64,000 bases of DNA, taken from NCBI GenBank assembly GCA_041649155.1, contig JBAZNP010000002.1, positions 6,640 through 70,639 on the forward strand, in the 5' to 3' direction. Positions within the stretch are counted from its first letter, which is position 1. Each line of letters opens with the position of its first letter. Both the position numbers and the translations under genes were made by a program. Source of the DNA: Patescibacteria group bacterium. Lineage in GTDB: Bacteria > Patescibacteriota > UBA1384 > XYA2-FULL-43-10 > 1-14-0-10-43-13. This document shows positions 19,906 through 62,745 of the stretch, one piece after another. The notes under the pieces are model-generated. The model saw only the letters and a list, made by a program, of their open reading frames with translations. It was not told the origin of the DNA and made no database searches.

Positions 19906-22017
<2,112 letters not shown>

Positions 22018-22124
22018 TCAAATAATTTGAAACCAACAAAATATATCAAGATTTTGTGGTCTCTCTTACTTATTTATATACTATCACTCTTCTTCATCTG
22101 CTTCAAGCTAATTTTATAGTAAAA

Positions 22125-22188
22125 GGTAGAAAGGCAGAGAATGGAAGGTAGAAAGCAGAGAGTGGAAGGTGGAGAGCAGAAGAAGAAA
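22125..22188. repeat. Three tandem ~21-22-nt repeats in the gyrB upstream region
   Basis: ggtagaaaggcagagaatggaa / ggtagaaagcagagagtggaa / ggtggagagcagaagaagaaa. The minus strand (the gyrB leader sense) is pyrimidine-rich with CTTCCAC/CTTCCAT motifs. Confidence 0.7.
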
Positions 22189-22304
22189 TATCAATCTTCC
22201 TTAAGTTACGAAATTGTGAGCCCTTGTCAAATTTCGACGGTTGCAAGCGCATGGAGCCTTGAGAGCGCCTAGAAATTTGATGGGGGTGAGCGTAATTTCG
22301 TAAC

Positions 22305-24503
22305 TTAAAGTATTTTTTTAAACTTAATCTTAATCGTTTTATCTTGATCAAGATTGAATTTAATCAAGATTTTTTTATTTTTTTTATCAAAATTCTGGAC
22401 ATTTTGGGGCTCAAAATTATCCGGATAATTTAATTCAAATTCCACATTATCAGTCGGCGCGCCAGGCTGCTTTTGAAAAGTTATTGAATAATTGAAGTCA
22501 CTATCAGTATCGACTGAATAACTGGGCGTATAATTTATCTTAACTTCACTTTTTTCTTTTGGCTTTGTGCTCATCCAAAAATTAACTATTTTTTTGCCAT
22601 AATCATCGCTTGTCCAAAAGGCTTTTCCATCTTTCAACCCCTTGTCAAACATTTGCTCGAAATAGCCCTGAACCGTTTCAAAATTAGTAACTTCTGAATT
22701 TTGCGGAATTAAAAAACGAATAAAATTTTTATTTAGCCCATCTGGCCATACATCAGATCCCGTATGATAACGAATTAGATCAACAAAATCGACAACCCCG
22801 CCTTCAGCAGAAATAGTAGTGGAAAATTTAAGTGATTCTTCCATGCTTAAACTGCTTTTAAGACCATCAAGATTTGAATTATTCACGTAAATATAGTCCC
22901 CGACTGACGGATAAACATTAGCCGAATAATTTAAATCAGCCAGCCTCTTCTCAAATTCTTCATTAGTAAAATATAACGTAATGTCTTTTTGCTTTAGTGA
23001 TTTTGACAATGATGCAAATATGGCAGGAGAAGTTTCCGTGTCTTTCAGCGCCGAAAAAAGTTTATCAAGAAATTTTGGCATCATAAGAGACAATATTTTT
23101 TTAGGTTCGTTTTCTTCCTTGTCGCCCTCCCTGTCAAAATATCCCTTGTGAACCTCGTATTCTACTTCATCTTTGAAGTTATCAGCATTAATATTTTTAC
23201 CTAGTTCTGAAACCTCTATCGTACCAACCTCCTTTAAAAGAGAGGTAAACGCCGTGGTATCAATCATCATAACCCCGTCTGCACTGTTTCCTGTTTCCTG
23301 ATTATAAAACCACAAAATCCTTTCCATTGCCTTCGGACCGTCAACATCCCACCCTGAATCCTTCATTGTTAAAGCACTATCCGGCATTAACCATTTTAGT
23401 TCATCTGGAGCTGTAATTTTAGTCTTATCCCTAAAAGCTTGATCGATTTTGTAAATATTAATTCCAAAATCAATGCCAGTTAAACTCCCTTCTTTAAAAT
23501 GAGCTACACCAAACGAACCGAGAGATCCTCCACTACCGCCTCGCAACTCGCTATTATTTTGAAACAATATTAATATGTTTTTTTCTTTTCCGTCTGCACC
23601 GGAAAGCCACGTTAGATCCTTCTCCAAAATTACCTGAGAGGAGTCTATAGATTTAATCGTTTTATCGATAACAGAAATCGCGTCATCTACTTCAGCCGCC
23701 TGATCACCTGACAAGCCTTTTCTGGCTAACAAAAGTTCAGTTTTACCATTATTCAACCTGCTCTTTCCATTATTGATCACAGAAATCAATACCTGCTGAT
23801 TGTCTGTGACATTAAATGAAAAACCCAAACCGGAAGTCTTGCTTTCTAAAAAAGAAATATTTGCTAATTGTCCATGGATTACAGATAGGGTATTTATGAT
23901 ATTGTATGATGCATCGAGTAAACGCTCGTTTGCAAGAAGTTTTGAATTGCTAGCTGAAGCTAAGCGAAGATATTGAATGTCCTGTCCCCAAGATTGCGCA
24001 ATTAGTTTGATTTTTCCTATATCTTTCTTTGCTTCGTCAGCCTCCTCCATCGCTCCACCAATATCACCACTATCTATAAGCGAAAAGGATTGCTGTAAAT
24101 GATCTCTTGCCTGTATGGAAAGCTTTTCCGTGCTGCTCTTTGCTGCCGTTATTCTAATTAGTGAAAATAATACAAAAACGCATACCGCTACCGCTATTGC
24201 AAGAGATTTATAGGAATAATTCAATTCAAAATTTATCTTAGAATGCTTAATTGGGTTTTTCGGAGTCTTTTTTAAAAATAGTTTTGTTTTATTTTTAGAA
24301 GAAGCAACCCTCGCAACAAAATCAGCTTTCACATCCCTAATATAATCATCAAAATCCACGTCGCTAGTTTTTTTTGTCCGACTATTTTGAGAATCAAAAT
24401 TGGAGAATTTATCAATATCCTCTTTAACACGCCTCGATTTTATATCGTCAATTCTTGGCAAAACCCCTCCAGGGTTAGTTGTTAGTAAACAAGCCCTCTC
24501 CAT
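22305..24503 (-). CDS. DUF4012-family membrane-anchored protein (large extracytoplasmic domain), head of a glycan locus
   Basis: N-terminal TM helix and the ILILFQNNSELRGGSGGSLGSFGVAHF block characteristic of DUF4012; 732 aa. Confidence 0.65.
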   Translation of the reverse strand: MERACLLTTNPGGVLPRIDDIKSRRVKEDIDKFSNFDSQNSRTKKTSDVDFDDYIRDVKADFVARVASSKNKTKLFLKKTPKNPIKHSKINFELNYSYKSLAIAVAVCVFVLFSLIRITAAKSSTEKLSIQARDHLQQSFSLIDSGDIGGAMEEADEAKKDIGKIKLIAQSWGQDIQYLRLASASNSKLLANERLLDASYNIINTLSVIHGQLANISFLESKTSGLGFSFNVTDNQQVLISVINNGKSRLNNGKTELLLARKGLSGDQAAEVDDAISVIDKTIKSIDSSQVILEKDLTWLSGADGKEKNILILFQNNSELRGGSGGSLGSFGVAHFKEGSLTGIDFGINIYKIDQAFRDKTKITAPDELKWLMPDSALTMKDSGWDVDGPKAMERILWFYNQETGNSADGVMMIDTTAFTSLLKEVGTIEVSELGKNINADNFKDEVEYEVHKGYFDREGDKEENEPKKILSLMMPKFLDKLFSALKDTETSPAIFASLSKSLKQKDITLYFTNEEFEKRLADLNYSANVYPSVGDYIYVNNSNLDGLKSSLSMEESLKFSTTISAEGGVVDFVDLIRYHTGSDVWPDGLNKNFIRFLIPQNSEVTNFETVQGYFEQMFDKGLKDGKAFWTSDDYGKKIVNFWMSTKPKEKSEVKINYTPSYSVDTDSDFNYSITFQKQPGAPTDNVEFELNYPDNFEPQNVQNFDKKNKKILIKFNLDQDKTIKIKFKKIL

Positions 24504-24628
24504 GTCATCCTCGGGCAGGCAACGCCATGGCCAGGGGATCCAGGATAGTAAATCTTAGTGAATTCCCGCCAGATGTTTACCCCGATAAATCATTGGGGCG
24601 GGAATGACAAAACAATTAGCAATTGCTA

Positions 24629-25741
24629 TCAGAGCTTATGGTTCTCCAATATATCTTCTACTGCTTTTTTAAATTCATTTTTAAAGCGATCAACGGAGAA
24701 ATTGTTTGCATGTTGCCTTATTTTTTCTGGATTGAACTTTTTAGAGTCGAAATTCTTTATGGTGTTGATCAAACATTGCGGAGTTTGCTCATCAAAAAAT
24801 ATTCCCGTAACACCATCGACAACAGTTTCCATGGCACCTCCGCCACGATACGCAATGACAGGTCGCCCTGACGCCATTGCTTCAACAGGCACTATGCCAA
24901 AGTCTTCCTCAGCTGGAAAAATGAAAGCTTTAGCCTCAGAGTAATACTTTTTCATATCATCATCTGAAACGAATCCAAGAAATTCAATATTAGATTTGGC
25001 CCGTTTTTTAAGCATGCTTTCATCTGGACCAGAGCCAATAATTTTTAATGGCAGACAGAGATCATTAAAAGCATCAATTACAAGGTCGCACTTTTTATAA
25101 TTTACTAATCTGCTAACAAACAAGTAATAGCCTTTTATATCTTGCGGTGGAGCAACTTTAAATCTGTCTACATCAACTGGTGGATAAATAACTTGAGATT
25201 CCCGATCGTAATACTTTTTAATACGGTTTGCGACATATTTTGAGTTAGCAAAGAAATAATCGACCCGATCGGCTGCTACCCTGTCCCAAATTCTCATTTC
25301 ATGGGCAACTTTGTTTCTTAGAAAAGAAAATTTACCTCTTCGGGCTCTAGGATCAACGTTCGCTTCCCATAAATAACGTGGTGGAGTGTTGCAATATGAA
25401 ATATGTATTGTGTCTGGTTTTGTTATTACGCCTTTAGCTGCCATGCTGGTATTGGAAATTATAACATCATACTTTGCAAGATCGAATTGCTCAAAAGCAA
25501 AGGGGGTAAAAGGAACTAAAAATTCTCTTCTTGATCTCATGAAAGGTAACTTTTGTAAAATCGAAGTCCTGACATCAAATTTCGCAAAAGGCTTAGCTTT
25601 ATTGGAATCGAAAACCGAAGTAAAAATCGGCGCTTTGGGATACATTTCCTTAAGCGCTAGAAGCACCCTCTCCGAACCGGCTACATTTGTAAGCCATTCA
25701 TGAACGAGAGCGATATTCATATTTTCCACCGAATGTTTCAC
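24629..25741 (-). CDS. Glycosyltransferase family 4 (GT-B, glycosyl transferase group 1)
   Basis: EDFGIVPVEAMASGRPVIAYRGGGAMETV, the C-terminal GT4 EX7E-type signature; 370 aa. Confidence 0.85.
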   Translation of the reverse strand: MKHSVENMNIALVHEWLTNVAGSERVLLALKEMYPKAPIFTSVFDSNKAKPFAKFDVRTSILQKLPFMRSRREFLVPFTPFAFEQFDLAKYDVIISNTSMAAKGVITKPDTIHISYCNTPPRYLWEANVDPRARRGKFSFLRNKVAHEMRIWDRVAADRVDYFFANSKYVANRIKKYYDRESQVIYPPVDVDRFKVAPPQDIKGYYLFVSRLVNYKKCDLVIDAFNDLCLPLKIIGSGPDESMLKKRAKSNIEFLGFVSDDDMKKYYSEAKAFIFPAEEDFGIVPVEAMASGRPVIAYRGGGAMETVVDGVTGIFFDEQTPQCLINTIKNFDSKKFNPEKIRQHANNFSVDRFKNEFKKAVEDILENHKL

Positions 25742-27122
25742 GAACCACCAACACTAATGTTTTAATAATTATTTTGAAATCAAACCATAAAGACCAATTT
25801 TCTATATAGAATATGTCATACCTAACACGCTCTTTAATTGAGGTGTCACCTTTAAGACCGTTAACTTGTGCCCATCCGGTCAATCCTGCTTTTACTCGAC
25901 GTCGTCTGAAATATTCCGGAATTTCATTTTCAAATTTTTGTACAAGTTTTGGCTGCTCCGGTCTTGGTCCGACAAAACTCATTTCGCCAGATAATATATT
26001 CCAGAGCTGTGGCAACTCGTCTAAATTTGTCTTTCGCAATATCTTCCCCAAAGAAGTGATCCGCTCTTTCTCATCATTTGCTGTAGTCCATTTTGAACCG
26101 CCATTTGAAAAATCACACTTATCTAAATACATTGATCTAAATTTATAACATCTAAATTTTTTACCGTCCCTTCCAATTCGATCATGATAATAAAAAATAG
26201 GACCTCTTGAAGTCAGAAGCTGCAAAAACATTACAAAAACAAATATAGGCGATAGTAAGGCTAACAAAAAAAACGCAAAAACAAAGTCGGATATCCTTTT
26301 TAGGATTCTGCCCCAACCATCCAATGGAATTGGTCTTAGCTCCATTACGGGCATGGATCCCAAAAGACCAGAGGAAACATTTAATGTCATCAACGATAGC
26401 GTGTCTGGGATATATTTAAAAACAACATTATGATCTGAACAAATCTGAATTAGTTCAATAATTTTTGACTTACTTAAAGCAACATCTGTTAAAATGATTT
26501 CATCAATTTGATGTTTAGATATCTTGTCCTTAAGATCTCTGATTCTACCGATGATCTTTAATCCATGTTTGCTTGGCTCAAAATCATTATTTAAGACCCC
26601 GAAAACTCTATATCCTGCTCCAACATTGCCTGACACGTAATTAATAATATTAGATGAAGTACTATTATCCCCAATTAATATCATTTTTCGTTCGCCCACC
26701 CCAAATTTTAATAGATCCTTCTGGACCAGATGGACAATGGTCCTACCGAAAGATATTGTTATAATACTAGTCACCCATGTAAATACCAAGATCAATCTGG
26801 AAAAAAACAACGATCTGGAAAGAAAAATTCCAACGATTAAAAGCAGTATTGAAATTGATGAAGCGTTAAAAATTTTGAAGATTTCTGACCAAAAACTTCT
26901 TGATGTCTTAATATTATAAAGACCATGAGAGGCGAAAAGGGTAATCCATATGGGTATTAAATAAATAGAATAACGAAGATATTCCTCGAGACCAATATTA
27001 GAAAAGACCGAAACAGTCTCTAGATCAGCCCTTAAATAATAAGCCACAACAAAAGAAGCGATTATCATTGCTATGTCAACCGGAACGAGAATGAAAGCAA
27101 AAAACAGTTCAGAGCGTTTCAT
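25698..27122 (-). CDS. Polyprenyl-phosphate sugar-1-phosphate transferase (WbaP/bacterial sugar transferase family)
   Basis: Five N-terminal TM helices plus C-terminal PIFYYHDRIGRDGKKFRCYKFRSM ... DELPQLWNILSGEMSFVGPRP. Start placed at M35/M37 of the track ORF. Confidence 0.85.
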   Translation of the reverse strand: MKRSELFFAFILVPVDIAMIIASFVVAYYLRADLETVSVFSNIGLEEYLRYSIYLIPIWITLFASHGLYNIKTSRSFWSEIFKIFNASSISILLLIVGIFLSRSLFFSRLILVFTWVTSIITISFGRTIVHLVQKDLLKFGVGERKMILIGDNSTSSNIINYVSGNVGAGYRVFGVLNNDFEPSKHGLKIIGRIRDLKDKISKHQIDEIILTDVALSKSKIIELIQICSDHNVVFKYIPDTLSLMTLNVSSGLLGSMPVMELRPIPLDGWGRILKRISDFVFAFFLLALLSPIFVFVMFLQLLTSRGPIFYYHDRIGRDGKKFRCYKFRSMYLDKCDFSNGGSKWTTANDEKERITSLGKILRKTNLDELPQLWNILSGEMSFVGPRPEQPKLVQKFENEIPEYFRRRRVKAGLTGWAQVNGLKGDTSIKERVRYDIFYIENWSLWFDFKIIIKTLVLVVRETFGGKYEYRSRS

Positions 27123-27245
27123 AATCATTATTATATTCCAAAAAACGATCAGATTCAATGTTAGAACTTTTTTAATAACTAAAATAGTCCAAACCCGAAG
27201 ATCTGGACATTTTAGTGTTATCAAAAACAAAAACTTTATCTATGA

Positions 27246-27389
27246 CTAGGCAGCTTTTCCAATTCTGAACATTTTAGTACCACAAACTGGACAAATACCT
27301 TGTGTGGCAGGTTTGCCGTTTTTCATAGTAACAGCTACTGTATCTTTCATCTCTTGTTTAGCTTTACATTTAACGCAATATGCTTCCAT
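27246..27389 (-). CDS. Small zinc-ribbon protein (47 aa, CxxC...CxxC); missed by the 60-aa ORF track
   Basis: Reverse translation MEAYCVKCKAKQEMKDTVAVTMKNGKPATQGICPVCGTKMFRIGKAA, with a GGAGGTGA Shine-Dalgarno 7 nt upstream. Confidence 0.6.
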   Translation of the reverse strand: MEAYCVKCKAKQEMKDTVAVTMKNGKPATQGICPVCGTKMFRIGKAA

Positions 27390-27637
27390 TTTTTTCACCT
27401 CCTCCCAAAAGAAATTAATATTGGTGCATCTAAGTTAATCTCACTATATCATTTTATTGGTCACGACTTACGCTTGTCAAGAAGAAATTAAGCTTATTTT
27501 AAAGTTATAAATATTTCCACGATCCAACAATCTAAATATTACTGTCCAGAACTACATAATATCAATTAGTTGAGAAAACTAGTTTAGAAATTAGAAATTA
27601 GAAATTAGAAATTTTCTTTGGGTTATCCCCAATGTAA

Positions 27638-28084
27638 TCACTCTGAAAATCCTACTATTCCTGCAAGTTCGGCTAATGTTCTCTCGCCAGCATACTGCTT
27701 GCCTTCATATATCCAGGTCGGATAGATACTGATTTCCAGAGCAAGGCATTCATCCGGATTAGCGTTTAATCCTGAAGCATCACATTCCACATAATCCAAA
27801 TATTGTGATGAAGCTTTAAATAGCTCTTTTTGATCGAGACTTCCCTTGGATTGATATGAACCATACAAAACCATACCTTTTTCATTCAAAAATCTGGCAA
27901 GACGTTCCGTATAGTCTTCACCTTGAATAGTGGTGCTTCCGGCCACATCACCCTCACTGGTTTTAATAATTCCTGTGTTAATGTCTTTTTTGTCCTGTTC
28001 TTTAGACAGAAAAAAAGTTGCGAACAAGGCAGCCACAACAATGAACGTAATTAAAAAAAGTAAACTTTTCCAATTCGCTTTCAT
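27638..28084 (-). CDS. Hypothetical membrane-anchored/secreted protein
   Basis: N-terminal TM or signal (LLFLITFIVVAALFATFFL); 148 aa. Some thioredoxin-fold flavour (IYPTWIYEGKQY) but no CxxC motif. Confidence 0.45.
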   Translation of the reverse strand: MKANWKSLLFLITFIVVAALFATFFLSKEQDKKDINTGIIKTSEGDVAGSTTIQGEDYTERLARFLNEKGMVLYGSYQSKGSLDQKELFKASSQYLDYVECDASGLNANPDECLALEISIYPTWIYEGKQYAGERTLAELAGIVGFSE

Positions 28085-28145
28085 ATGCCTCCTTTTTAGA
28101 ACTGAGAATTTAGAGCTTTGAACTTAGGCTATTTTCTTACACCTA

Positions 28146-28751
28146 TTAATTGTAGGTGATATTTTCTTCCCCGTCAAAGACAAACCCTTTATCTGATATT
28201 TCATAAGAGCTTCTTATTGAGCTAGTCAAAGGATTCAAATCGTAGTTTCTTTGATCAATTATGAGTTTAGTTTTTCCGTTGTCTTCACTGAAATGAAAAT
28301 ATGGCACGTCAGTAGTAATGTTTTCACTAGTCGATTCTCTTACAAACGGAATAATTGAGAAATGATTATCTAGATACTTGATGACTTGAATATTCTGGCT
28401 ATGCACACCCACATTCCCCATCAGGCAGATGGCTTCATTATCGTTCTGTAGCTTAACAACCTTTTGTTTGCACAACAATATCTCTTCTTCAAACCCCGAA
28501 AGTTTAATTTTATGTTTTGAGCCGAAAAGATTATTTTTAACTAAAAAATATTGATATTCATTATTGTTTTGATATTTTTCAATAGAAAATTTCTCTGAAT
28601 GTTCATTAATAGTGACTTCAACCTTTTTAGACGACACCGGCTTACCTTCATTATTTGAATCAGCAAAAATGTAGTTTTTGCAAGTAAACACAAAAACCAG
28701 CACTAAAAATACTAAGAATATGATTTGTCTTATTTTTGCCCGACGTGTCAC
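28146..28751 (-). CDS. Hypothetical secreted protein
   Basis: GTG start with an AGGAGG Shine-Dalgarno and an N-terminal hydrophobic segment; 201 aa. Confidence 0.5.
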   Translation of the reverse strand: MTRRAKIRQIIFLVFLVLVFVFTCKNYIFADSNNEGKPVSSKKVEVTINEHSEKFSIEKYQNNNEYQYFLVKNNLFGSKHKIKLSGFEEEILLCKQKVVKLQNDNEAICLMGNVGVHSQNIQVIKYLDNHFSIIPFVRESTSENITTDVPYFHFSEDNGKTKLIIDQRNYDLNPLTSSIRSSYEISDKGFVFDGEENITYN

Positions 28752-28830
28752 CTGCCTCCTAATTATATTTAATACAATGATAACATAACGCTTGTTACTA
28801 TCAAGCGCTGATCACACAAGAGAGATGCAC

Positions 28831-28907
28831 TTTCCACTTTCCACTTTCCACTTTCCACTTTCCACTTTCCACCTTCCACCTTCCACCCTCCACCCTCTAC
28901 CTTCCAC
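28831..28907. repeat. Heptanucleotide microsatellite: 6 perfect TTTCCAC units plus 5 degenerate units (CTTCCAC, CCTCCAC, CCTCTAC)
   Basis: Seen directly; 11 tandem 7-mers. It lies about 80 nt upstream of the 28146..28751 gene start and just downstream of the polyprenyl synthase stop. Confidence 0.9.
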
Positions 28908-28909
28908 TA

Positions 28910-29977
28910 TTAGTAGTCTCTTTCGGCCATATATTTTGCGACTCCGATAAAAAAATCTTTACTCTTATTTTTCATATTAGAAGATTCAATCGATTTGATC
29001 GCTTTTTGAACATATTTCTGAACAATTTCCTTTGACCTGTCCAATGCACCTGTTTCAATAACAATCTTTCTGACTTGTTCCAATTCTGAAAATCCAACTG
29101 CAGAATTACCTAGGTTTTTAACTATAATCTTTCTTTGCTTATGATCGGCATATTTTAATGCGTCTAATGTCAATAGTGTTTTTTTGCCTTCTCTCAGATC
29201 GGAAAAAGTGGATTTCCCCAACTTTTCTTCAGAACCAAACATGCCTAAAATATCATCCTGAATTTGAAATGCAACACCAAGTGACACTATATATGTATCT
29301 AATTTCTTAAGCTTTGTCTCATCTGCTCCAGCTAAAATTGCTCCCATTTTTATAGGACCGCTAAAAGTATAGGGAACTGTTTTTAGCTTGTGGATAAGTA
29401 CCACATCCCTTTCTGCTATTCCATTTTGTGCTTCTGAATAGATATCTAAAAATTCACCATAAAATTCCAGAGCGTATACTTGGTTAAACTCTTTAAGCGC
29501 ACGAACAACGTTCTTCGGTTTAAATTTACTGTTAGCGATTATTTCATTGCTCATTGAACATGCCAAATCACCTGCCAATAATGCTCCAGAAATACCAAAA
29601 AGCCTTTTATCAACTTCTTTATCAAACTGATCAGCATTTTTTTCAAATGACTTGTGCGCAGTCGGACCACCGCGCCTTAAAGAATCGTTGTCAATGATAT
29701 CATCGTGAATTAGAAGGAATGTTTGCATCAGCTCCATAGCCATTGATACTGTCAGAGCCTCTTTTTCGTCCTTGCCGCCATGTGCCAAATAACTATAATA
29801 GAAAAGAGCAGCCCGGATTCTCTTACCACCTCGCATCGTCATATCTTCAACTGCTTCAGATAGCATTTTCAATTCCAAAGAAATCTTAGCGCTTTCTTTG
29901 ATTTGCCCATTCAAATACTTACAAAGGACTTTCTCTAACTCAGTCTTAAATTTTTTAAGCTCAGTTCTAATATCCAT
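28910..29977 (-). CDS. Polyprenyl diphosphate synthase (trans-isoprenyl diphosphate synthase family)
   Basis: First DDxxD motif LIHDDIIDND and second FQIQDDILG. Start set at MDIRTELKK (ATG at 29977). Confidence 0.85.
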   Translation of the reverse strand: MDIRTELKKFKTELEKVLCKYLNGQIKESAKISLELKMLSEAVEDMTMRGGKRIRAALFYYSYLAHGGKDEKEALTVSMAMELMQTFLLIHDDIIDNDSLRRGGPTAHKSFEKNADQFDKEVDKRLFGISGALLAGDLACSMSNEIIANSKFKPKNVVRALKEFNQVYALEFYGEFLDIYSEAQNGIAERDVVLIHKLKTVPYTFSGPIKMGAILAGADETKLKKLDTYIVSLGVAFQIQDDILGMFGSEEKLGKSTFSDLREGKKTLLTLDALKYADHKQRKIIVKNLGNSAVGFSELEQVRKIVIETGALDRSKEIVQKYVQKAIKSIESSNMKNKSKDFFIGVAKYMAERDY

Positions 29978-56267: not shown

Positions 56268-56294
56268 GACAAAAAAAGCCGAATTACTTCGGCT
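56268..56294 (-). promoter_or_regulatory. Intrinsic-terminator-like hairpin inside the long 5' leader of the secreted-protein operon (candidate attenuator)
   Basis: Minus strand: AGCCGAAGtaatTCGGCT followed by TTTTTTTGTCCCGTTTT, about 90-110 nt upstream of the start codon. Candidate promoters lie further upstream (TTGACA at reverse complement 56508-56513 and 56418-56423). Confidence 0.4.
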
Positions 56295-56543
56295 AACCCA
56301 GCTACCGTAACCCTTGATTGCTCAAGCGTCTTAGGCCATAGGCTTTGCGTCGCCAGCTTTCACTGGTTTTGCTATTGTCGGTTTTGATACCGCAAATCAT
56401 ACACCAAAAAATAATTTTGTCAATACTGAAAAAGAAATTATCGGAAATATTAATCGATCGTACATATTTGACGATATTAAAAATATTTACAACACTATTT
56501 CAAATTTTGTCAAAATGAGGTATGATGTTTTAGTGTAAATATT

Positions 56544-61047: not shown

Positions 61048-61179
61048 AAAAACGTAAAGAAAATTGTTCTATAGATTTCCGAAACAAATTTTAAATTTCG
61101 ACGTTCTATACAGCAATTCGAAATTTATTAATTATTTTGCGGCGGATCTTTTTTTGTTTTGTCGCATCGGAAAGAATTT

Positions 61180-62745
61180 ATGTTCAAAAACAAAAGTGCC
61201 AATAATAAATTTGGCAAAAAAAACTATGCCGGCAACTTTAGATCCGGCGGTAACAATAAAAAATCATTTTACTACGGATCAAGCGACGGAGATAAAAATG
61301 TATCCAGATCAACCTCAACTGGTAACTCCAGACCTTCATTTAGAAGCTCCTCTCCAACAGCCTCCGGTTTTGCGTCTAACACATCAGGAAAAACAGCTTT
61401 TGACGGCCCAAAGCGTGTATCAAGAAATGCTTACGGAAACCCATCAGCCGCTAGCGGAAAACTAAAAACTTCTTACGCGGGTCCAAACACAGAGAGAAGC
61501 ACGAGTTTTGGTGAAAACAATAGGCCATCATATGGCAGTAGAAATAGCAGACCTTCATATGGAGATAGAAACGGAAGACCATCTTATGGTAATTCTAGAC
61601 CCTCATTTAGATCAGGGTCTAGATCCCCTAGAGCTAGATTCAGTGAAAATATTGATATCTCAAAGTTCATTTGCAAACCATCTGGAAATGTAGAAGTCAA
61701 AGCAGTAGAAATCAAAAACTCATTTGCTGATTTTCGTTTTGTTCCAGAATTACAAACCAATCTTCAACATAAAAAATATATCACTCCAACCCCGATTCAG
61801 GATCAGTCTATAAATCATATTGTGGACGGTAAAGATATAATCGGCTTGGCAAATACCGGCACAGGAAAAACCGGAGCATTTTTGCTGCCGTTGATTAATA
61901 AAGTCTTCAAAAATAAATCTCAAAAAGTTTTGATTTTAGCCCCAACAAGGGAACTTGCCCTACAGATTGATGAAGAATTCAGACAATTCTCTTGGTCAAT
62001 GAAAATATTTTCGACTGTCTGTGTTGGTGGATCACCAATCTTTAAGCAAATCAATAATCTAAAAAGAAACCCCAACTTCGTTATTGGGACTCCAGGTAGA
62101 TTGAAAGACTTGAGCGAACGAAACCTAGTAAGATTTGAATCATTTAACAATATTGTTATTGATGAAATTGACCGAATGTTAGATATGGGATTTGTTGATG
62201 AAATTAAAGCTATTTTAGCCAAATTACCAAAAGAGAGACAGTCTTTATTCTTTTCAGCAACTATGCCAGAAAAAATCAGAGGCCTAATTCAACAATTTTT
62301 GGTTGACCCTGTTACAGTTGAAATAAAGTCAGGACAAACTGCCGACAATGTTGAACAAGATGTCGTCCGAGTAAGAAGTTCAGAAATGAAATTCAATCAA
62401 CTTCAGGAAATACTAAGACAATCTGACTTTAAAAAAGTTTTAATCTTTTCTGAAACCAAAAGAGAAGTGGAAAAATTGACATCTAGTTTAGTGGGCGAAG
62501 GCTTTAAAGCTGACTCAATTCATGGTGACAAAAAGCAACATCAGAGGCAAAAAGCTCTTTCTCTATTTAAAAATGATACCGTGAATATTCTAGTTGCAAC
62601 AGATGTTGCTGCGCGCGGTCTAGACATTGACGACGTATCGCATGTAATTAATTACACTGTTCCACAAACATACAACGACTATATTCACAGGATTGGAAGA
62701 ACAGGTCGTGGAGATAAAAAAGGAATGGCTTTAACTTTCGTTTAA
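61180..62745 (+). CDS. DEAD-box ATP-dependent RNA helicase with an N-terminal Ser/Arg/Gly-rich low-complexity extension
   Basis: Q-motif FVPELQTNLQHKKYITPTPIQ, motif I ANTGTGKTGAF, motif II VIDEIDRML (DEID), SAT, and HRIGRTGR. The TTG at 61159 is an alternative start. Confidence 0.9.
   Translation: MFKNKSANNKFGKKNYAGNFRSGGNNKKSFYYGSSDGDKNVSRSTSTGNSRPSFRSSSPTASGFASNTSGKTAFDGPKRVSRNAYGNPSAASGKLKTSYAGPNTERSTSFGENNRPSYGSRNSRPSYGDRNGRPSYGNSRPSFRSGSRSPRARFSENIDISKFICKPSGNVEVKAVEIKNSFADFRFVPELQTNLQHKKYITPTPIQDQSINHIVDGKDIIGLANTGTGKTGAFLLPLINKVFKNKSQKVLILAPTRELALQIDEEFRQFSWSMKIFSTVCVGGSPIFKQINNLKRNPNFVIGTPGRLKDLSERNLVRFESFNNIVIDEIDRMLDMGFVDEIKAILAKLPKERQSLFFSATMPEKIRGLIQQFLVDPVTVEIKSGQTADNVEQDVVRVRSSEMKFNQLQEILRQSDFKKVLIFSETKREVEKLTSSLVGEGFKADSIHGDKKQHQRQKALSLFKNDTVNILVATDVAARGLDIDDVSHVINYTVPQTYNDYIHRIGRTGRGDKKGMALTFV

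Follow-up and report, generated by a model that had tools for sequence, protein, structure and literature searches.

Array 1, a tract of eleven tandem heptanucleotides lying between a polyprenyl synthase gene and the gene for a 201-aa protein in an uncultivated CPR/Patescibacteria MAG, is on balance probably a slippage-driven SSR of nil or modest quantitative effect, placed where a stop codon and a promoter leave the DNA between them unconstrained. The contig carrying it is also present in ENA as ERZ27247363 k141_786268 (101,891 bp), and a stretch of 64 kb, hereafter called the window, was analysed; coordinates refer to the window unless another contig is named. The locus is composed of the following features.

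28910..29977, minus strand: polyprenyl synthase gene (355 aa; PF00348, E 4e-56), ending in the tandem stops TAA TAG
28831..28907, minus strand: array 1, eleven heptamers, unstructured as RNA (MFE 0.0)
28777..28804, minus strand: promoter of sigma-70 type serving the 201-aa gene; congeners B and C conserve it, and it can still be recognised in lineages D and E
28755..28760, minus strand: Shine-Dalgarno (SD) sequence AGGAGG, 3 nt before the GTG start, invariant in three congeners
28146..28751, minus strand: 201-aa protein gene with a GTG start at 28751, encoding an N-terminal signal peptide or anchor and an all-beta domain

On the plus strand, positions 28831-28872 read (TTTCCAC)x6 and are followed up to 28907 by CTTCCAC, CTTCCAC, CCTCCAC, CCTCTAC and CTTCCAC; the sense (minus) strand reads GTGGAAG GTAGAGG GTGGAGG (GTGGAAG)2 (GTGGAAA)6. 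TRF places the array at 28828-28908 with period 7, 11.6 copies, 91% matches and a score of 106, the highest of the 64-kb window. Two-unit matches with at most 2 mismatches were observed 8 times against 0.79 +/- 0.87 expected, and none of 100 shuffles reached 8. The length of the array is unusual because a comparison set of 852 kb, made of loci from other CPR and archaeal genomes, contains no comparable period-7 array: all those found there have TRF scores of 56 or less and at most 4.7 copies, with one exception (7.7 copies, 72% matches). Array 1 is a prokaryotic long SSR by definition, that is, a unit of 1-11 nt repeated head-to-tail beyond chance length. In fact, the sequence itself, TRF and the shuffles all agree on the tract of eleven units, including (TTTCCAC)6, that had been noticed in a preliminary description of this DNA.

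That description had also placed the tract right after the synthase stop and about 80 nt upstream of the next start codon, and both positions hold. The synthase gene ends with TAA (28912-28910) and TAG (28909-28907), array 1 abuts these tandem stops and takes the G of TAG as its first base, and 79 nt separate it from the GTG at 28751. Translation reading through the array was ruled out by inspection because of the two tandem stops that precede it, and no terminator-like site was found between the synthase gene and the 201-aa gene. The predicted promoter is composed of a -35 TTGATA (28804-28799), a 16-nt spacer and an extended -10 TGnTATCAT (28785-28777); it begins 25 nt past the end of the array on the sense strand, and the array is wholly upstream of the -35, at about -62 to -140 from this conserved promoter. 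Species A (that of the window) and its congeners B and C all conserve the block from CTCTTGTGT through the -35, the extended -10, the SD and the start codon. This conservation across lineages, with a promoter still recognisable in D and E, argues that the promoter is real and wholly downstream of the tract, and as a consequence gain or loss of units would alter only the distance to the upstream gene. The proposal that a change of copy number would shift promoter spacing finds no support for the same reason, the -35 and the extended -10 both lying beyond the tract with their spacing unaffected. Array 1 is probably upstream of the transcription start of the 201-aa gene, whose place we infer. A hairpin at 28787-28809 that overlaps the -35 was considered as a terminator or conserved operator and rejected: it is not conserved in the congeners and no T run follows it.

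The 201-aa protein has an N-terminal hydrophobic helix, then an ISA/IFA-DSN junction and an all-beta domain that is modelled confidently (pLDDT 85). These three features make its description as secreted plausible, in the form of a secreted or membrane-anchored product. The protein has no Pfam family, and its model found no significant fold match in the PDB (best E = 0.009, partial, beta-propeller-like). The gene opens a block of 6.8 kb that continues with a 148-aa membrane protein, DUF5679, a Bac_transf sugar transferase, a GT4 glycosyltransferase and DUF4012; the last three make the genes near array 1 envelope-glycan genes. Among congeners the 201-aa protein is the most divergent of the block, with 72-76% identity against 79-90% for the other five proteins.

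Strain variants of the locus were taken from the 90% cluster of the 201-aa protein. One of them (L356; ENA ERZ27247350) aligns without gaps to window positions 27121-29170 (2050 bp) with 20 mismatches, of which 11 fall in the 77-bp array and 9 in the other 1973 bp (Fisher p = 1.3e-11); between these two strains array 1 changes about 30 times faster than its flanks. The variant allele is GTGGAAG GTGGAGG GTGAAAA (GTGGAAA)3 (GTGGAAG)5, again of 11 units in a different order. All 11 array differences are exchanges between A and G, and five of them repeat one A>G change at a fixed position of successive units, which argues for turnover of blocks of units and not for independent point mutation. A third sequence (L355; JGI 3300014204) starts inside the array and has at least five GTGGAAA units beside the 3' flank, as in the window, yet six of its flank SNPs are those of L356, so that array state and flanking haplotype are not coupled. 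Contigs assembled by Logan at k=31 end inside the tract, because its perfect run (42 nt) exceeds k, and give no repeat number.

No change in the number of units was seen within the species, where the two complete alleles both have 11 (n=2; the L355 allele is partial). This constancy, despite at least five inferred events, hints at selection on the length of array 1. The call for a comparison of repeat number was answered in two ways, with 11, 8 and 0 units among congeners and the same number in the two alleles of the species. The claim of a slippage-prone microsatellite was sustained both by this range and by the concentration of 11 of the 20 strain differences in the array. Taken together, the alignments indicate that array 1 is hypermutable relative to its flanks, between strains as well as between congeners.

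The nine SNPs outside the array that distinguish the window from L356 all fall in the 201-aa ORF (28146-28751), and none was found in the adjacent 148-aa gene or the DUF5679 region within the L356 overlap. Among the three strains this ORF has 10 SNP sites, 6 of them nonsynonymous, which suggests that the 201-aa gene is under diversifying or relaxed selection.

The congeners B and C were found via the protein database; lineages D and E are more distant. In species B (84% identity; L085, L086 and L087) the synthase gene ends in TGA TAG and eight degenerate units follow at the site of array 1, namely GTGGAAG GTAGAAA GTAGAAG GTGGAAG GTAAAAA GTAGAGG GGGGAAA GTGGAAA; this degenerate array is identical in all three samples. 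In species C (83% identity; L088) array 1 is absent and 28 unrelated bases stand at the site, and yet the promoter, the SD and the 201-aa gene are kept. The tract is therefore dispensable for the promoter and for basal expression of the 201-aa gene, to judge by this congener. Pairwise protein identities make A and B the most distant pair in four of the six block proteins, so that the arrays common to A and B are probably ancestral; they would be old and have been lost or replaced in species C. Conservation in GTDB species representatives was looked for and discarded: the closest synthase homologues have at most 56% identity and lack both the repeat and the downstream synteny, the best representative being Candidatus Berkelbacteria (56% identity) and the others belonging to other CPR.

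Short repeats of other kinds were noticed in neighbouring spacers. In lineages D and E (L357 3179-3213; L360 3546-3568) the 201-aa homologue has a 5'-UTR made up of (TAAGCAAG)x4.5 or (AGTAATA)x3.3, and these short repeats replace the canonical SD; the 201-aa gene therefore seems to attract short tandem repeats in several lineages. The spacer between the GT4 and DUF4012 genes is unalignable between species (window 24504-24628; L085 13341-13393; L088 9276-9292; L360 7688-7706) and contains differing short repeats of 7-8 nt in most of them (B, C and E). Spacers rich in repeats are thus a trait of the clade.

A search for (GTRGARR)x3 with at most 3 mismatches found three places only in the 64-kb window, array 1 and two others. 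The search for other tracts that the preliminary description had proposed thus gave, within the window, two further related arrays, both in one 6.8-kb block and none elsewhere. Arrays 1 to 3 occupy successive stop-to-promoter spacers of this block.

22123..22182, minus strand: array 2, in reverse-complement orientation to the array 1 family, sense CTTCCAC/TTTCTAC type
27584..27613, minus strand: array 3, sense (AATTTCT)x4.3, after the stop of the 148-aa gene and a small hairpin

Array 2 lies 6.7 kb from array 1, with the DUF4012 stop on one side and the conserved gyrB promoter on the other, and has a super-period of 21 nt, equal to two helical turns. In species B it has 10 units and starts 4 nt after the stop (L085 15628-15698); species C lacks it. 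Arrays 1 and 2 are consequently both present in A and B and both absent in C, a concordance that has a chance probability of about 0.17 in three species and is not significant. They form the best inverted repeat of the region: each alone has an RNA MFE of 0.0, and together they are predicted to form a duplex of 62 bp at -90.4 kcal/mol, against -55 +/- 5 for shuffles. Covariation of the two arrays was tested and rejected, because the non-cognate duplexes (A1-B2 -102.7, B1-A2 -73.2 kcal/mol) are as stable as or stabler than the cognate ones (A1-A2 -90.4, B1-B2 -68.4).

Array 3 differs by one mismatch per unit from the reverse complement of GTAGAAA. Its position is kept in five lineages; four of these have 4-5 units and species B has 2.1, and the units vary by lineage (AATTTCT, TAAAATT, AATTYCT); the counterparts are L085 10365-10379, L088 6197-6226, L357 4402-4436 and L360 4690-4723. 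It is preceded by a conserved small hairpin, GGGGATAACCCC, with which it may constitute an unrecognised 3'-end or intergenic element.

Two other elements were observed near array 2. An insertion of about 115 nt (22186-22304, minus strand) with 11-nt terminal inverted repeats, GTTACGAAATT...AATTTCGTAAC, has a MITE-like look, folds as a long hairpin (-33 kcal/mol, z = -3.7) and is absent from both congeners. The gyrB leader (21979-22100, minus strand) is long and near-invariant in three species and contains the hairpin CCACAAAAT...ATTTTGTTGG; it could be a regulatory 5'-UTR.

The explanation that we favour is that replication slippage would generate array 1 as a fast-evolving heptanucleotide SSR, filling the stretch from the synthase stop codon to the upstream limit of the promoter, the only unconstrained DNA there. 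Runs of identical units, such as the six GTGGAAA here or the three GTGGAAA and five GTGGAAG of L356, would grow, shrink and displace one another, and the array therefore turns over far faster than its flanks. It is needed neither for the existence of the promoter nor for the persistence of the gene order. Its effect on the 201-aa gene or on the downstream envelope-glycan genes would most likely be nil or modest and quantitative, and a modest effect would act through the upstream DNA or through the intercistronic RNA of read-through transcripts.

Several observations speak against mere filling of a spacer. The unit number is 11 in each of the two resolved alleles, array 1 shares its 6.8 kb with two more arrays of the family, arrays 1 and 2 complement each other and co-occur, and array 3 keeps its place and length from genus to genus; moreover, the adjacent 201-aa gene is a hot spot of polymorphism with its 6 nonsynonymous SNPs, as one would expect close to a contingency locus. 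All this suits a functional element better than pure filler.

Array 1 is plausibly a contingency locus, although we regard this reading as unlikely. As a candidate locus or rheostat of this kind, it would alter, by slippage, the number or type of its units and thereby the expression of the 201-aa gene and perhaps of the downstream glycan genes, in a manner resembling the tracts upstream of nadA, vlhA or hmw. Its hypermutability and its closeness to a conserved promoter are in keeping with such a role, as is the nature of the downstream product, which carries a signal peptide, evolves faster than any other protein of the block and is a hot spot of SNPs. The envelope-glycan neighbours (Bac_transf, GT4, DUF4012) are, moreover, typical targets of phase variation (PMC12721329). 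The tract, however, shows no length polymorphism, with 11 units against 11, although two resolved alleles are a weak test. It is not placed as contingency tracts are, namely in a reading frame, in the -35/-10 region or between a promoter and a regulatory site: array 1 is intergenic, outside the -35/-10 and upstream of the likely transcription start, and beyond it there is only coding sequence and no known operator or activator site. Finally, congener C keeps the promoter and the gene without the tract.

It is doubtful that arrays 1 and 2, perhaps with array 3, work as a single set of mutually complementary, unstructured tracts in the untranslated spacers that bracket the 6.7-kb envelope-glycan operon. 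Doubtful to the same degree is the form that this set would take, its length being kept while its units turn over, as a long-range RNA clamp or RNase III processing site or as paired heptad arrays that bind protein. If it were true, slippage would diversify the expression of a fast-evolving secreted protein and of surface glycan genes, and this would be the first contingency-type system described in Patescibacteria.

A transcribed RNA element is a rather improbable function for array 1. On read-through synthase transcripts, array 1 would pair with array 3 or array 2, the pyrimidine-rich partners located 1.2 and 6.7 kb downstream, in a long duplex serving RNase III processing or the control of operon stability, by analogy with the hairpin of the hmw 5'-UTR. 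Read-through is conceivable given that no terminator-like site separates the synthase gene from the next one, and the predicted duplex with array 2 joins two arrays that are unfolded on their own, are the top inverted repeat of the region and share their pattern of presence and absence in the three species. The strain differences, all between A and G, would keep pairing with U, and about 13% of the scanned metagenome and viral loci, among the matches listed, have an inverted partner array within 100 nt. The best-understood precedent is that of Haemophilus influenzae, where the transcript of the hmw (ATCTTTC)n tract pairs with a G-rich arm and is processed by RNase III (PMC12721329). Against this, arrays 1 and 2 do not covary, the three-species concordance could well be due to chance, and a span of 6.7 kb is far beyond known mRNA processing stems. 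The internal promoter of the 201-aa gene would moreover leave most downstream transcripts without array 1.

It is very improbable that the units are heptads on which a DNA-binding protein polymerises, whichever way they point, ahead of the 201-aa, DUF5679 and gyrB promoters, in the manner of the omega repressor of inc18 plasmids on its WATCACW heptads. All three arrays lie just upstream of conserved promoters, one unit family is found in both orientations, array length is equal in the two alleles and several arrays have 21-bp super-periods matching two helical turns; no candidate binding protein was found, however, the unit sequences drift freely at three of seven positions, neither array 1 nor array 2 exists in congener C, and permuted controls are as common as the motif family.

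Least of all can we credit array 1 as a G-quadruplex (G4) repeat or CsrA-type GGA platform on the sense RNA: ViennaRNA with its G-quadruplex option predicts two-tetrad G4s where GTGGAAG units prevail in the two alleles of species A (-19 and -29 kcal/mol), G4 formation is described for the G-rich heptamers of Xanthomonas and Nostoc (PMC4692102) and every unit contains GGA, but no G4 is predicted in the (GTGGAAA)6 run or the species B array, the GGA motifs are not in hairpin loops (MFE 0.0), more than 55 nt separate its nearest GGA from the SD, with the array itself probably lying before the transcription start, and the CsrA target first suggested finds no reader in the 64-kb window, where tblastn with CsrA of Escherichia coli and Bacillus subtilis gave no homologue (best E = 0.44). 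Two other identities were tried and abandoned. As a cluster of DnaA boxes, the array contains no exact TTWTNCACA, and the window has 7 against 8.75 expected; as an Rfam family, it gives no match at gathering score, and the only match with E<=1 in 21900-29000 is a chance one to a snoRNA.

To see array 1 as an SSR in a spacer is also to ask how common such arrays are. The pattern (GTRGARR)x4 occurs in at least 120 metagenome contigs, with a GC content of 0.30-0.71 among the matches listed, and in 37 viral contigs, where mirror and permuted control patterns occur in 20, 52 and 67. Because the controls are as frequent, GTRGARR was rejected as a special motif family, and purine-rich heptamer arrays appear to be generic. 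No second copy of the array 1 locus was found among the 120 matches listed in the JGI metagenome. With crude ORF calling, and for listed matches that do not fall in long ORFs, the purine strand has the sense of the 5' neighbour in a ratio of 53:17; by the same crude calling the listed metagenome arrays lie at a median of 17-27 nt past the stop of that neighbour, in agreement with the published placement of the G-rich repeats of Xanthomonas and Nostoc (PMC4692102).

Two arrangements of such units were seen in this material. Many unrelated metagenome and viral contigs (L122, L127, L140, L202, L212, L214, L243 and others) contain a purine-rich heptamer array, a short loop and a reverse-complement array, and these long hairpins built of heptamers are located in intergenic spacers, often ending just before a start codon. 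Another metagenome contig (L186) carries the unit 'ggaggggaacaccc.cggttaga (GTGGAGA)4-6 tttattctactc.tcatgatt' six times in 5 kb, for example at 2564-2592, as a dispersed mobile or regulatory module with repeats inside it.

Two further elements of the window were also recorded. A match to the c-di-GMP-I riboswitch (56289-56383, minus strand; 54.5 bits, gathering score 35) is found upstream of ORFs of 177 and 671 aa, and a DEAD-box helicase ORF (61159-62745) contains in its 5' part a 27-nt tandem repeat (61525-61589; 2.4 copies, score 79).

For episymbiotic CPR bacteria, whose genomes are tiny and whose regulators are few, stochastic surface variation based on SSRs would make sense, but we found no literature report of it in these bacteria; nor did we find a literature description of long heptanucleotide SSRs in Patescibacteria. 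Here a lineage of this group carries a hypermutable heptamer array beside the gene of a fast-diverging, plausibly secreted protein and beside envelope-glycan genes. Even if neutral, array 1 would be a useful strain marker, and it is a caution for assemblers, as assemblies at k=31 break at it.

Repeats comparable to array 1 are known from several other groups. The STRR heptamers of cyanobacteria are, like array 1, perfect-to-degenerate, non-coding arrays with a sporadic distribution and presumed slippage, and heptamer families have also been reported in Geobacter. As summarised in PMC4679880 from Mrazek et al. (2007), heptanucleotides are the most abundant class of long SSRs (5-11 nt) in prokaryotes, described mainly in Burkholderia, Xanthomonas, cyanobacteria and actinobacteria; these long SSRs share with array 1 the passage from perfect to degenerate units, the non-coding location, the sporadic phylogeny and the presumed slippage.

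The repeats of H. influenzae hmw1A and hmw2A (PMC12721329) resemble array 1 in having 7-nt units, in about 10-20 copies, upstream of a secreted or surface-protein gene with glycosyltransferase genes adjoining. The units themselves are alike (CACTTTC on the plus strand here, ATCTTTC in hmw), both tracts are hypermutable, and in both the pyrimidine-rich strand has a purine-rich partner. The hmw tract, however, is downstream of its promoter, in the 5'-UTR, and its length varies and tunes expression, whereas array 1 is upstream of the promoter and has 11 units in both resolved alleles. The two also differ in pairing, as the hmw tract forms a local hairpin with its G-rich arm; the complement of array 1 is 6.7 kb away, and array 1 itself, upstream of the predicted promoter, is essentially unpaired in the fold of the intergenic RNA.

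The vlhA gene of Mycoplasma gallisepticum has a GAA tract that, as an SSR upstream of the -35 of a surface-protein gene, is placed like array 1. The same position is taken by the TAAA tract of Neisseria meningitidis nadA (PMC2791445). The nadA tract separates operator and IHF sites from the promoter, so that changes in its length change phasing, while beyond array 1 there is only coding sequence without a known binding site.

The G-rich repeats GGGNATC and GGGGA(C/T)T of Xanthomonas and Nostoc (Rehm et al. 2015, PMC4692102) are likewise intergenic and variable in unit number between co-oriented ORFs, with the G-rich strand coding; they are found within 50 bp after stop codons, 0-50 bp from the stop of the 5' neighbour or overlapping it. 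They differ in being genome-wide, in preferring four units and in forming three-tetrad G4s, whereas the window has three arrays in 64 kb, and array 1 has 11 units, G runs of 2-3 and a predicted G4 that is not conserved in the congener. The TAACTGA repeats, abundant in marine Beggiatoaceae (PMC4679880), are also intergenic direct repeats of heptamers, for which an RNA-binding reader (S1, Csp or CsrA) has been proposed. They occur in 2-6 copies directly upstream of start codons, in place of the SD, at 169 sites per genome, whereas array 1 lies 79 nt from the start of a gene with a strong SD and has few related sites. Judged by its sequence and position, array 1 brings to a Patescibacteria genome a further case of intergenic heptanucleotide repeats, a class already known.
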